A stretch of DNA of 64,000 nt from a virus (IMGVR_UViG_3300025270_000009:37853-101852); one strand, 5' to 3'; shown: positions 51,146-58,061, counted from the stretch's first letter. The notes: a model not told the origin generated them from the letters alone. Program-made: numbers and translations.

Positions 51146-52090
51146 TTAGCCTTCCATCACACGGTAAGCTTCGTGGGTGCATAGCTTGTCGAATGCTTTT
51201 TCAAAAGCAATCTGCTCACCAAGCTCCTGATCGAAGTCATCAGGGTTCACGCACGAAGAGTCGCCTTCAACAGCAAAGCCTGACGGCATTTTAATGACAC
51301 AAATTGTCATCGTGGTTTCAGGCACAATAGTGTACTCAACACTGGCAATGCGAGACTTAAGCTCATCAACATCAATTGCCTTGTTACGACCATCGTTGTC
51401 GTTAACCTGGTCTTGACCGGCTACCTTCGCATCGTAGTATTCGAGCAAGCCTTTCTTAATAAACTCTAAAGGCTCTTCTTCTAAGGCGATTGTCTCAGCC
51501 ATTCTGCCGACAAAATCAACCATGACTTCGTTGTCTTCCTGGCCGTTCCAGATTTTGCGGTACTCACCTTCTTTGTAGCCACGCTCCTGACGAACAAAGT
51601 TTAGGGCGTTTTTACCCATATACATTGAATAGAAGGTCTCAAAATCACCGTAAAAATCCATCACCATGTCGAACAATATAATATAGAAATTAAAGGTCGG
51701 CACTCCAACCGTAAAATGCTCGGTTAACTCAGCCTTGCCATAAGAAATAGAGCCCTGATTAGGCACCGTTTCTGACCATGCTTGAGAAATTGCTCCCGCC
51801 AGATAATCAAGGGCTTCATCAAAAGACTTGTAGCCTTTCATTTCATGTTCAATGCTTGCAGACATTGCAAAGTGGAATATATCGACCAACTCCATTGCTG
51901 CCTGATCCAAGTCCGGTGTCTGATTCTTCCACCACTTGTAACCCATGTGGTCGTGAAACTCACCAAACTCTACGTTAATGGCTACTGCATCTTCACGCTT
52001 AACTTTTGGGTTAATTGGCCAATCCTTGTCAATTTTTTGGTTAAACAAGGTTTGAAGCTCTAACATTTTGCGGAACTGCTTCTTGTGCAT
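51146..52090 (-). CDS. dimeric (all-alpha) dUTPase fused to Gp49/66-like domain
   Basis: EFGE..KWWK..MELVDIFHF..KNALNFVRQ..GY; C-terminal SSCVNPDDFDQELG. Confidence 0.85.
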   Translation of the reverse strand: MHKKQFRKMLELQTLFNQKIDKDWPINPKVKREDAVAINVEFGEFHDHMGYKWWKNQTPDLDQAAMELVDIFHFAMSASIEHEMKGYKSFDEALDYLAGAISQAWSETVPNQGSISYGKAELTEHFTVGVPTFNFYIILFDMVMDFYGDFETFYSMYMGKNALNFVRQERGYKEGEYRKIWNGQEDNEVMVDFVGRMAETIALEEEPLEFIKKGLLEYYDAKVAGQDQVNDNDGRNKAIDVDELKSRIASVEYTIVPETTMTICVIKMPSGFAVEGDSSCVNPDDFDQELGEQIAFEKAFDKLCTHEAYRVMEG

Positions 52091-53970: not shown

Positions 53971-54189
53971 TTACATTTTTACCTCGACCTTGAGAGGCTC
54001 TATTTCATCTGACCTGATTTTGACAGGTGTTTTATCCTTCCCATAATAAGTATGGTTGGCAAGGACAATGAATACTCCCAAGTAAAAAAGGAGAAATGCC
54101 ACTCCAACTATGCGCCACTTCCTTCTATACAAATAAGCAAGCACAGCCTTTCCCAAATTCTGCGAGGTCAGTCGAAAATCGAAACCCAT
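53971..54189 (-). CDS. small membrane protein
   Basis: 1 TM segment. Confidence 0.5.
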   Translation of the reverse strand: MGFDFRLTSQNLGKAVLAYLYRRKWRIVGVAFLLFYLGVFIVLANHTYYGKDKTPVKIRSDEIEPLKVEVKM

Positions 54190-54416
54190 AAGCCTTTATT
54201 GTCCCACATCTTTCGCGAACGATGCTCAAGCCTGATCTTCTTAAAGTTGTCCCAGGCCACAATAACGCCCATTAAAATGAGAACCGTCGATAACAGCATA
54301 CCGGCTGCCATTTCCAGCCCCTTATCACTACTTGAGGACAGATAAAAGGCTAATAGCCCTGATGTAGCGGTCATAACGCCACAAATTAAAATTACAAACA
54401 GTCGAAACATAACCAC
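54168..54416 (-). CDS. small membrane protein
   Basis: 2 TM segments. Confidence 0.55.
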   Translation of the reverse strand: MVMFRLFVILICGVMTATSGLLAFYLSSSSDKGLEMAAGMLLSTVLILMGVIVAWDNFKKIRLEHRSRKMWDNKGLWVSIFD

Positions 54417-54453: not shown

Positions 54454-55449
54454 TTACCACTCGGCCATGTCATCGTAAGTGTCACGCTCTGACTCAAAGA
54501 AGTTTGTTTCAAAGGCGACATCATCAGCACGCTCTTCAACAAACGGAGCCGGATCTTTTGTAACACCGGGGTAGATTTCACCCAGGCCTAGCGCTTTCGA
54601 GTATTGGTTGGTCAGATACTCGATGTAGGTCTCCATGAGCTCGTTCGATAAGCCCATAATGCCGTCACCGATGATGTGATTGCCCCACTGCTTTTCAAGC
54701 TCAGCCGTGTTCTTCAGAATGTCCTTAGCACGCTCACGGAATTCCGGAGTGTCTACTTCAGGGTTTTCAGCCAACACGTCTTTAAACATGGCATTGAACA
54801 GGCGCAAATGGTTATTTTCATCGCGGTGGATGTAACGAATTTGCTTAGCCGATTCGGGCATTTTTTTGTTTTCTGCCAAAGCGTAGAAAAACAAAAATCC
54901 AGACTGGAACATAATGCCTTCTAGCGCCTGGTTTGCGACTGTGGCCAAAGCAAAGTTCTCGGTCGAGAAACCTTCCGGCATCAACACGTTCATCACGCGA
55001 ACGTACTTGTTCTTTTCGTGAAGAAGGTCGTCAGTCATGAACATATTGTAAGTTTCGATAGGGTCAAAGCCCATTGTCTCGATCATTAAGCTGTACGCCA
55101 TGACGTGCATGGACTCATCAAAAATCTGACGACTCAACGCCATGCGGTACCAGGGCGAAGTCACATGAGAGTTAACCACGTTCAAGTTGTTCAGCTGAAG
55201 ACCGTCCAGATTTGACAAGAACGCCAGGGCTTTTTGGTAACCGCGTTGCTCAGCCTCAGTTAGAGAGGACCACTGTTGAACGTCACGGCTCATGTCCACA
55301 GAAGACTCATTCCAATGGTCTTCACGCATCTTGTCGTAAATCGCCATTGCAGCCGGGTGCTTGGCCGGTTTGATCTGCATTAACCCATTGTCAGGGCCAT
55401 TAATTACACGATAATCGTCTAAGTTGATGATTTCTTTATCAGATTTCAC
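54454..55449 (-). CDS. nrdB: ribonucleotide reductase class Ia beta subunit
   Basis: NLDG, ESMH..Y, EG..F..GF, DENNH, NFFE. Confidence 0.93.
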   Translation of the reverse strand: MKSDKEIINLDDYRVINGPDNGLMQIKPAKHPAAMAIYDKMREDHWNESSVDMSRDVQQWSSLTEAEQRGYQKALAFLSNLDGLQLNNLNVVNSHVTSPWYRMALSRQIFDESMHVMAYSLMIETMGFDPIETYNMFMTDDLLHEKNKYVRVMNVLMPEGFSTENFALATVANQALEGIMFQSGFLFFYALAENKKMPESAKQIRYIHRDENNHLRLFNAMFKDVLAENPEVDTPEFRERAKDILKNTAELEKQWGNHIIGDGIMGLSNELMETYIEYLTNQYSKALGLGEIYPGVTKDPAPFVEERADDVAFETNFFESERDTYDDMAEW

Positions 55450-55506
55450 GTCTATTCTCCGCTACTAATTACAAAATGAGAGGGACAATAAGTCCCTCAA
55501 CAACAA

Positions 55507-55866
55507 TCACTGACACGCTTCGCAAGCAATCTCTTCGTCAGCGTCATAGTCGGTCGCTTCAGCAAGCTCAAAGACTACTCGCTCGATGCGACTCTCATCG
55601 TCACCAGTAACCCGGTTTTCTTCCATGCCATAGGCAAAGGTCATTACCGTTGGTGCCGAGCGGATATTGCGCAGATGCAAAAAGCCGTTATCCACGTCTT
55701 TAATGTCGATTTTGATAAAGTCGATACTCTGATGAGTTTCTTCTAACTTTTTCAACGTGCGCTCTGCACTTTGGCAGGGTGCACAGTTTGTAGCGCAAAT
55801 CATGAGGACCGTAGGACGGCCCTCTGTTAAACGCTGTACCATTTTTTTGTGATCTAACTGTTGCAT
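55507..55866 (-). CDS. thioredoxin-like protein with extra C-terminal CEAC tail
   Basis: CAPC active site, cis-Pro APT, ends DYDADEEIACEACQ. Confidence 0.85.
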   Translation of the reverse strand: MQQLDHKKMVQRLTEGRPTVLMICATNCAPCQSAERTLKKLEETHQSIDFIKIDIKDVDNGFLHLRNIRSAPTVMTFAYGMEENRVTGDDESRIERVVFELAEATDYDADEEIACEACQ

Positions 55867-55868
55867 GA

Positions 55869-58061
55869 TTAAGCTCCTACTTTTTTAGCTGCTGAAGAGG
55901 TTTTTTGCTTCTTCAGGTAATAAGTTGATTTCAAACCTAAGCGCCAAGCCAGGTCGTAAATTGCAGCGACTTCTCGCCCTTTTGTGTCCGCCTTGCAATA
56001 GATATTCAGACTTTGAGACTGATCTACCCATTTCTGGCGAACCGCAGCCGGACGAATCTGCCACTCCGGAGATATTTCATAAGCCGTCTTCGTTATTTCA
56101 GGCCGGTTGTATTGCTGACACGGCTCTACAACACGGTATAAACCGCCTATGTTTTCTTTCTTGAATACACGGTGCTCACTTGCTTCAGTACAAGGCGTGG
56201 TACCGGCTATGTTGGCGATGGTTGCCGTTGGTGCGACCGCCATTAGGTTGCAGTTGCGCATACCTTGTTTAGCCAGTTCGCGAACACGGTCCCAAGCCTC
56301 AGCTGAGTACACGTTTGTTTCACGGTTGCGAGCGGTATCAATTGGCAAAATGCCCTGAGACCACAAGCTACCTTCAAACGACTCGTACCGGCCTCGAGTT
56401 CGAGCCAACACGCTTGAGCTAACGATTGAGTGATATGAAATAACCTCAAACACTTCGTCTGCCCATTTCAGGTGCTCTTCTGACTCATAATCGATGCCAC
56501 ATTGAACAAGTGCTTCTGCGTAGCCCATGACACCAAGACCGATTGGGCGATGACGCATATTCGAGCGGCGAGACTCATCGCTTGGGTAGTAATTGAGGTC
56601 AATTACGTTATCCAACATTTCGATAGCGTCAGAAACCGCCTGGCCAAGCAGGTCAAAGTCAATTTTTCCGTCAACAACCATACGGCTCAGGTTGATAGAG
56701 CCTAAGTTACACACGAACGTCTCATTAGTGCTGTTGTTCAGCGAGATTTCAGTGCACAAGTTCGAGTTGTGAATCATTCCGTCGTGCGACTGAGGATTAC
56801 GGCGATTATGCTCGTCCTTAAACGTCAGCCACGGCGCACCTGTTGTCATGACGCTCAGAACGATTTTCTGCCAAAGCTCAGCTGCATTAATCTGGTGACG
56901 CGCTTTACCGGCCTTCTCAGCTTCAATGTAAAGGCGCTCAAACTCTGCACCGTAGCTCTCAACAAGCTCGGGGCACTCGTCAGGGTCAAAGAACGACCAG
57001 ATTGCTTCCGGATCTTCTTTACGCTTCATGAATAAATCGTTCATGAAGAAAACAGGGAAAATGTCATGAGTTCGGCGGCGCTCATCGCCTGTCTTCTTCT
57101 TCAGATCGATAAAGGCTAGAGCGTCTGCGTGCCACGGCTCAAGATAAGCCGCAAAAGCTCCCTTTCTCTTACCTCCCTGGTTAACAGCTACAGAGGTGTC
57201 GTTATAAACTTTCAGGAACGGCACAATCCCTGAGCTTCTTCCATTCGTTGCGCGAATGTGTCCACCCATCGACCGTACACCTGTCCAGCACGTTCCAATC
57301 CCCCCGGCATACTTCGACAGAGCGGCGCACTCGGTCATCTTTGGGTAGATACCGCCCTCATCAATCAAGCTGTCACCAACAAAGTTGCCGTAACATGAGC
57401 TCATTTGGCTGAAGTTGGTGCCTGAGTTAAACAAGGTCGGTGTCGAGCTCACAAACTCCAGGCTGCTCAGCCGGTCGTAGTAACGAATTGCTGCTTCAGT
57501 GCGCTCTTCTTCACTGTCAAAGTTCAGGCTTAAGCCCATTGCGACACGCATCCAGAAGTGCTGAGGCAGCTCAAACAAACGACCCACTTTTTCATCACGC
57601 AAAGGTTCTTTACGCATCAAATATCTTTCTGTCAGTGTTGACATACCGACAAAGTCAAATAAAGAATCACGCTCCTGAACGATAGCGTCATTAAGGTCGT
57701 CCATGTTGAAGCGCAGCATACGCTTGTCAAAACGGTTCTCTTCGATACCAGTAATGATTGTCTCTTCAAGGCCTGGGTACCGTAAAGAGCCGCCGGTCAC
57801 TTCTTTGAAGTTGTTCATCATCATCAGACGCGCTGCCACAAACGTGTAGTTACGCTCTTCTGATACTTTCTGTGCTGCCGAGATAATCAAGGCATTTTGA
57901 ATGTCAGACGTTGGGATGCCGTCAAAGAATTTAAGCGTTGTGCTCATTACAACGTCATCCGGTGAAACGTTTTCCAGGTCACGGCACGCGAATTTTGCAG
58001 CGGCGGTGATCTTGTCGATGTTCAACTCTTCAAGAGAGCCGTTCTTTTTAGTGACTTGCAT
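55869..58061 (-). CDS. nrdA: ribonucleotide reductase class Ia alpha subunit
   Basis: ATP cone, TPTLFN, SSC, SNLCTEI, VCNLGS, APTA, STYY; operator 58115-58134 upstream. Confidence 0.96.
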   Translation of the reverse strand: MQVTKKNGSLEELNIDKITAAAKFACRDLENVSPDDVVMSTTLKFFDGIPTSDIQNALIISAAQKVSEERNYTFVAARLMMMNNFKEVTGGSLRYPGLEETIITGIEENRFDKRMLRFNMDDLNDAIVQERDSLFDFVGMSTLTERYLMRKEPLRDEKVGRLFELPQHFWMRVAMGLSLNFDSEEERTEAAIRYYDRLSSLEFVSSTPTLFNSGTNFSQMSSCYGNFVGDSLIDEGGIYPKMTECAALSKYAGGIGTCWTGVRSMGGHIRATNGRSSGIVPFLKVYNDTSVAVNQGGKRKGAFAAYLEPWHADALAFIDLKKKTGDERRRTHDIFPVFFMNDLFMKRKEDPEAIWSFFDPDECPELVESYGAEFERLYIEAEKAGKARHQINAAELWQKIVLSVMTTGAPWLTFKDEHNRRNPQSHDGMIHNSNLCTEISLNNSTNETFVCNLGSINLSRMVVDGKIDFDLLGQAVSDAIEMLDNVIDLNYYPSDESRRSNMRHRPIGLGVMGYAEALVQCGIDYESEEHLKWADEVFEVISYHSIVSSSVLARTRGRYESFEGSLWSQGILPIDTARNRETNVYSAEAWDRVRELAKQGMRNCNLMAVAPTATIANIAGTTPCTEASEHRVFKKENIGGLYRVVEPCQQYNRPEITKTAYEISPEWQIRPAAVRQKWVDQSQSLNIYCKADTKGREVAAIYDLAWRLGLKSTYYLKKQKTSSAAKKVGA

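Follow-up and report, generated by a model that had tools for sequence, protein, structure and literature searches.

The DNA stretch described here, hereafter the window, comprises 64,000 nucleotides (37853-101852) of the IMG/VR record IMGVR_UViG_3300025270_000009, an uncultured phage of 101,852 bp. The minus strand holds a nucleotide-metabolism block which starts with nrdA, followed by a 119-codon thioredoxin gene with an unusual 3' end, here called trx-tail, and nrdB. Together these probably encode a three-gene class I ribonucleotide reductase (RNR) in which a dedicated thioredoxin, and no longer the large subunit, bears the shuttle dithiol. Canonical class I NrdA (R1) has a covalent C-terminal Cys pair (C754/C759 in E. 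coli, C-x-x-C in most others) that is re-reduced by thioredoxin, glutaredoxin or NrdH (PMC6187632, PMC4078304, PMC9669993); it is presented as a standard feature of class I RNRs (PMC6187632, PMC9669993). In the dimer the disulfide of the active site undergoes reduction by the Cys pair on the other polypeptide. Redoxins have no direct access to the active site, and tail mutants function only with small reductants such as dithiothreitol (PMC4078304). On balance, we favor the view that trx-tail is an obligate third subunit of the enzyme, a diffusible carrier with two dithiols which would conduct electrons from a host reductase to its CAPC site, then to its own tail and finally to the active site of NrdA.

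The catalytic body of NrdA is intact. Pfam recognized an ATP-cone (PF03477), the all-alpha domain (PF00317) and the ten-stranded barrel (PF02867, E 7.5e-155); the score against TIGR02506 was 573 bits at a cut-off of 341. The best solved relative is NrdA from P. aeruginosa (5im3), with which the catalytic motifs align, i.e. Cys223 in SSCY, Cys436 in N-x-C-x-E, Cys451 in VCNLGS and the Tyr-Tyr pair 714-715. The flexible tail with the Cys pair of class I NrdAs is absent. The protein stops 15 residues after Tyr-Tyr, this stub is free of Cys, and the last Cys is residue 689 within the barrel. A preliminary description of this DNA had stated that NrdA keeps its active-site residues and ends without Cys; the 5im3 alignment and the sequence of the protein end bore this out.

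The adjacent open reading frame (ORF) is a thioredoxin according to Pfam (PF00085, E 8.9e-8) and PHROG 22. An AlphaFold2 model built from an 84-sequence alignment had a pLDDT of 95 and a pTM of 0.86, and Foldseek matched it to solved thioredoxins with TM scores of 0.75-0.88. The CxxC redox motif at the start of helix 2 (C28-A-P-C31) and the cis-Pro loop (P72) are present. About 15 residues extend beyond the fold as an acidic linker with a terminal C-E-A-C-Q. In the model this Cys tail lies outside the fold and is predicted with lower confidence. At the junction the TAA of nrdA is followed by two bases (TC) and the ATG of trx-tail (55866-55864) in the -1 frame. Thus, ORF reading, Pfam and fold agree with the earlier claim that the next gene, after a 2-nt gap and in another frame, is a CAPC thioredoxin with an acidic end; this end is CEACQ-stop. 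Two other assemblies, L004 and L005, contain the same three genes and the same synteny up to thyA/DHFR, with identities to the window of 85% for NrdA and 75-80% for the thioredoxin. Between these three loci the tail codons differ by 4-6 synonymous vs 0-1 non-synonymous changes per pair, those of the helix just ahead of the tail by 4-5 synonymous vs 8-10 non-synonymous changes. The coding sequences thus indicate that the Cys tail on the thioredoxin is under strong purifying selection, as are NrdA and NrdB.

The relatives of NrdA point to where the tail came from. Closest among cultured phages are the NrdAs of Pseudomonas phages nickie, Nican01 and Cygsa01 (about 50% identity), which exceed the window's NrdA by 23-30 residues and have C-E-[AS]-C-Q as their end; the last five residues of the nickie protein are those of the trx-tail protein. 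In 18 IMG/VR relatives each NrdA end within the fetched DNA bears a C-E-[SA]-C-Q tail, and nrdB is the next gene in most. Among the fetched tailed relatives no thioredoxin ORF was read or annotated between the NrdA tail and nrdB. With the C-terminal third of NrdA as a query, the 120 best database relatives were collected. C-x-x-C-x was the end of 109, in 90 of them as CE[SA]CQ, and 11 were tailless. All 11 stop 15-20 residues past Tyr-Tyr with a conserved Lys-rich stub, the last codons of which encode a Shine-Dalgarno sequence. Trees calculated with the tail columns excluded place the tailless NrdAs in a single clade inside the tailed proteins, i.e. a single origin by one change (FastTree SH-like support 99, IQ-TREE SH-aLRT 98). 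The sister clade consists of NrdAs with two Cys in the tail; the final nine residues of these tails equal the end of thioredoxin P0010 and differ little from that of P0007. The tail on the thioredoxin is therefore homologous to NrdA tails, in line with the earlier statement that the missing NrdA tail sits on the downstream thioredoxin. The net charge is +2 to +5 in the tailless stubs and -3 to -6 in the thioredoxin tails, where the corresponding regions of tailed NrdAs average +1.2 and -2.3, respectively. This complementary shift to a basic stub and an acidic linker hints at electrostatic recruitment. The tailless NrdA P0228 had matches in IMG/VR at 29% identity only. Inteins are frequent among the NrdA relatives, e.g. 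in L024 (1441 aa). Over residues 560-730, the tailless end included, P0160 (1119 aa, Logan contig of 95,322 bp) has the same sequence as the window's NrdA; it also carries a LAGLIDADG-type intein (PF14528), which is absent from the window's copy.

Tailed thioredoxins are rare. A profile search covered 1.84 billion representatives, and the best 150 matches, which contained eight tailed clusters at 50% identity, were examined. These clusters comprise proteins of 113-126 residues which are 26-50% identical to that of the window and have in common a C-x-[PS]-C site, the cis-Pro and an acidic linker that leads to C-E-[AS]-C-x at the end. A C-E-x-C-x end occurred in 8 of these 150 nearest thioredoxin-like representatives, all from the protein's own family. 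This motif is at the same time the family-specific end of the corresponding NrdA clade, and its presence on a thioredoxin is more than chance. In an alignment of 11 members only G16, C28, C31, R69, P72, G80, C115, E116 and C118 are invariant. No relatives of the tailed thioredoxin were found in GenBank phages, PLSDB plasmids, IMG/VR or GTDB genomes. One metagenome scan returned a single true relative, L026, and eight other loci with ordinary thioredoxins. Tailed thioredoxin and tailless NrdA are co-inherited. Five lineages tie one to the other by longest contigs of equal size (101852, 90671, 57413, 22279 and 59659), and the resolved parts of the thioredoxin tree are congruent with the NrdA tree. 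Gene context was read directly at four loci, the window, L004, L005 and the distant L026. In L026 a Cys-free NrdA end is followed by a 192-aa ORF and then by a thioredoxin of the family, which runs off the contig end. The 192-aa ORF (L026 469-1047, plus strand) has 1-nt start/stop overlaps on both sides. Judged by eye, its C-terminal half is similar to the C-terminal, gp49_66-like domain of the 314-aa dUTPase_2 protein in the window (51146-52090, minus strand); it also matches phrog_322 and phrog_4435, both function-unknown families.

How might such an enzyme be recharged? The electron path, in all its steps, is one that we infer from these comparisons. After each turnover the Cys223-Cys451 disulfide of NrdA would be reduced by Cys115/Cys118 of the thin acidic tail, which could enter the NrdA cleft where a globular redoxin cannot. 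The oxidized tail would then be reduced by the CAPC site of the same or of a second trx-tail molecule, and the CAPC site in turn by the host. The phage contains no glutaredoxin, second thioredoxin, pyridine-nucleotide disulfide reductase or second RNR large subunit. Consequently, the final electron donor must come from the host, most likely thioredoxin reductase with NADPH because the phage encodes no reductase. The preliminary description had proposed a shuttle dithiol supplied in trans by a Trx-tail fusion. Every sequence-level part of that proposal held, and the actual reduction of NrdA is what it predicts.

The split itself needs to be secured, since an error of assembly or sequencing, or a decaying nrdA, might mimic it. 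Apart from the 2-nt spacer beside a homopolymer run nothing points that way. Between the ORFs, the window and L005 have the stop TAA and 2 nt, L004 has the stop TGA and 1 nt; accordingly, trx-tail is in the -1 frame in the former two and in the +1 frame in the latter. These differing stops, spacers and frames, together with eleven independent clusters of tailless NrdAs from independent data sets that stop at the same place, rule out a sequencing error or indel, and strong purifying selection on NrdA, NrdB and tail is not what decay would leave. The comparative data have already refuted this explanation, and we rate its probability as practically nil. An indel that fuses the ORFs, the objection raised by the preliminary description against itself, is excluded as well by the different junctions across assemblies, the one tailless clade and the congruent thioredoxin tree. 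Alternatively, ribosomes might slip by -1 at a run of six A and produce a single NrdA-thioredoxin-tail polypeptide, the tail of which would still be tethered to NrdA. The -1 frame is indeed open from the A-run into the thioredoxin ATG in the window and in L005 (open frame of 125 aa). However, in L004 the -1 frame hits a stop and in L026 a whole gene is located in between; a good Shine-Dalgarno sequence and the ATG are conserved, and no fused form was present among the longer proteins searched, which is weak evidence by the tool's own caveat. A conserved programmed frameshift is thus ruled out, and a tethered tail appears very improbable. A low-level fusion by slippage may occur in the window and in L005; in L004 it is impossible. 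At 55872-55889 (minus strand) six A are followed by G-T-A-G-G-A-G before the nrdA stop, which resembles a slippery site. An intron or ribozyme at the junction was rejected as well; Rfam gave no match at E<=1 in 55300-56200.

Other explanations concern the function of the second protein. Its four Cys (CAPC and CEAC) might bind a metal or an Fe-S cluster, the protein then being a sensor or regulator and not an RNR shuttle. A thioredoxin fold with two C-x-x-C motifs is reminiscent of the zinc-binding thioredoxins, of which TrxC gave a weak match. Against this stand the homology of the tail with the shuttle tail of NrdA, its occurrence precisely in those cases in which NrdA lost its own, and its inheritance along with that loss; we regard metal binding as quite improbable. 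A further explanation accepts that the tail works in trans and takes the thioredoxin domain as a mere carrier or docking module. Host thioredoxin or glutaredoxin would then re-reduce the tail, and CAPC would have another purpose or none. Some of what favors it weighs at the same time against the self-recharging carrier that we prefer. The redox site is non-canonical: in place of Trp-Cys-Gly-Pro-Cys we found Asn before the motif and Ala for Gly, and the protein remained far below the cut-off of the thioredoxin equivalog TIGR01068 (35.2 vs 96.8 bits). Therefore, the host thioredoxin reductase as its reductant is an assumption. Two family-like thioredoxins, P0040 and P0046, have no Cys tail. P0040 (123 aa), inside the tailed family on the tree, also lost the second redox-site Cys (C-x-x-S). 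P0046 (127 aa), the likeness of which was judged by eye, kept CPPC and has a different acidic end peptide. Further, merely 5-9 or so flexible residues connect the last helix with the Cys pair, far fewer than in the tether of a fused NrdA, so that docking of the thioredoxin body at the entrance to the active site would be required. Lastly, beyond the close loci L026 alone provides a directly read context; the others are contigs matched by size. On the other side, none of the 11 tailed members, although only 26-50% identical, deviates in either site Cys or in the cis-Pro, and P0040 lost tail and site Cys together, as expected if the two cooperate. Taken together, a thioredoxin domain that serves as a carrier alone is unlikely.

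We then return to the shuttle-bearing thioredoxin and its origin. The order of elements is the NrdA body, about ten residues of the old linker, about five new ones which at the same time provide the Shine-Dalgarno sequence, a stop, the thioredoxin, the old tail, a stop, a hairpin with T-run and nrdB. In the tailed relatives tail, similar hairpin and nrdB follow each other directly. The first approximately ten residues of the stub align with the start of the linker in these relatives, and the last approximately five codons also serve as the ribosome-binding site of trx-tail; this site is also kept in L004 and L005. Such a layout would result from a single insertion of a Shine-Dalgarno sequence plus thioredoxin in frame with the tail codons. 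A thioredoxin gene that brought along a ribosome-binding site would have landed, in an ancestor of the phage clade, in the flexible linker between NrdA body and tail. Since then NrdA would terminate about 15 residues past Tyr-Tyr, and the thioredoxin ORF would read into the old tail codons. The best reading of the sequences is that this ancient insertion gave rise to a trans-acting, self-recharging shuttle, and the insertion of trx into the 3' end of nrdA suggested earlier fits the layout. With the Shine-Dalgarno sequence inside the last nrdA codons and a spacer of 1-2 nt, translation of trx-tail is probably coupled to that of nrdA. The hairpin behind the trx-tail stop recurs in L004 (6370-6388) and L005 (458-476) with 7-8 bp and compensatory changes across the three loci; the T-rich run behind it is present in two of the three. 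Similar hairpins are located 3' of the nrdA tail in tailed relatives (L007-L010, L023). Possibly it is a partial terminator or an mRNA-stability element which may set the alpha:beta ratio. The coordinates are listed in Table 1.

Table 1. Features of the nrdA/trx-tail/nrdB region (positions counted in the window).
Feature	Position	Strand	Basis or remark
nrdA, class I RNR large subunit, 730 aa, without C-terminal Cys pair	55869..58061	-	ORF, Pfam, alignment
NrdA stub, 15 Lys-rich residues past Tyr-Tyr, net charge +5	55872..55916	-	
Shine-Dalgarno sequence AGGAG for trx-tail, within last nrdA codons, 7 nt before ATG	55874..55878	-	
trx-tail gene, 119-aa thioredoxin-fold protein with NrdA-type redox tail, stop included	55507..55866	-	
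Redox-site codons C28-A-P-C31	55774..55785	-	both Cys invariant in 11-member family alignment
Redox tail, residues 105-119: acidic linker (net charge -6) and C115-E-A-C118-Q	55510..55554	-	beyond last thioredoxin helix
GC-rich hairpin (7 bp), then T-rich run, between trx-tail stop and nrdB	55480..55498	-	
nrdB, class I RNR small subunit, 331 aa, GTG start	54454..55449	-	PF00268

Several known systems are related to this one in part. Compared with canonical class I NrdA we have the same enzyme, the same catalytic residues, the terminal C-E-[SA]-C-Q motif of the nearest relatives and presumably the same thiol-disulfide relay; here, however, the tail ends a separate thioredoxin. As a consequence the step from redoxin to tail would be intramolecular and that from tail to active site intermolecular. 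In the split class II RNR NrdJa/NrdJb from Pseudomonas aeruginosa, NrdJb supplies the Cys for disulfide exchange in trans (Crona et al., 2015, PMC4520616; PMC9669993). Similarly, a catalytic subunit without shuttle Cys is joined there by an adjacent, separately encoded second polypeptide which has them. Yet NrdJa/NrdJb is a B12-dependent class II enzyme, whereas the operon here has NrdB and the second protein is a thioredoxin. NrdJb is a cleaved-off C-terminal domain (IscU-like plus zinc finger), is no redoxin and still needs an external one. In Aeromonas phage Aeh1 a homing-endonuclease gene splits nrdA into genes-in-pieces (PMC3045599). There, too, a foreign gene was inserted into the nrdA of a phage, the fragments of which still yield an active enzyme. 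In Aeh1 it is the catalytic body that is split, and the insert encodes a selfish nuclease outside of the enzyme; here the inserted gene was fused with the downstream fragment and probably became a functional subunit. Glutaredoxin fusions are known as Grx::ATP-cone::NrdB in Facklamia ignava and as grx::nrdB in vibriophages and Francisella (Rozman Grinberg et al., 2018, PMC6187632). They likewise join a dedicated, operon-encoded redoxin physically to an RNR component. There the redoxin is on a whole subunit and reduces a tail that is still on NrdA; here the fusion partner of the thioredoxin is a tail of only about 15 residues, and NrdA is tailless. The NrdH-redoxin of class Ib is another small dedicated redoxin within an RNR operon, but it lacks a tail of the RNR type, and the C-terminal Cys have stayed on NrdE. 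None of these systems combines a tailless class I NrdA with a tail-bearing redoxin. Full-text literature searches yielded no description of such a pair. If true, this would be the first natural class I enzyme with the shuttle dithiol on the reductant and not on the alpha subunit.

Entry of the tail into the active site and its recognition by redoxins are poorly characterized because the tail is disordered and tethered. On a small, soluble and folded thioredoxin the steps would become separable, e.g. by titration of the shuttle, by trapping of mixed disulfides at either end or by the structure of a complex. The system would neatly illustrate a gene insertion that first disrupted an enzyme and later was made a component of it, and would be one route by which phages may lessen the dependence of deoxynucleotide synthesis on host redoxins. 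In annotation, 'truncated' would be the wrong label for the tailless NrdAs of this clade, and the thioredoxin gene downstream of them should be listed as coding for an RNR component.

Beyond nrdB the minus strand continues with small ORFs, which are followed by thyA and by genes for DHFR and dUTPase_2/gp49_66. Two small hydrophobic ORFs of 82 and 72 aa, which overlap each other, are located between nrdB and the thyA block (53971-54416, minus strand). In L004 their counterparts of 78 and 77 aa occupy the same position.

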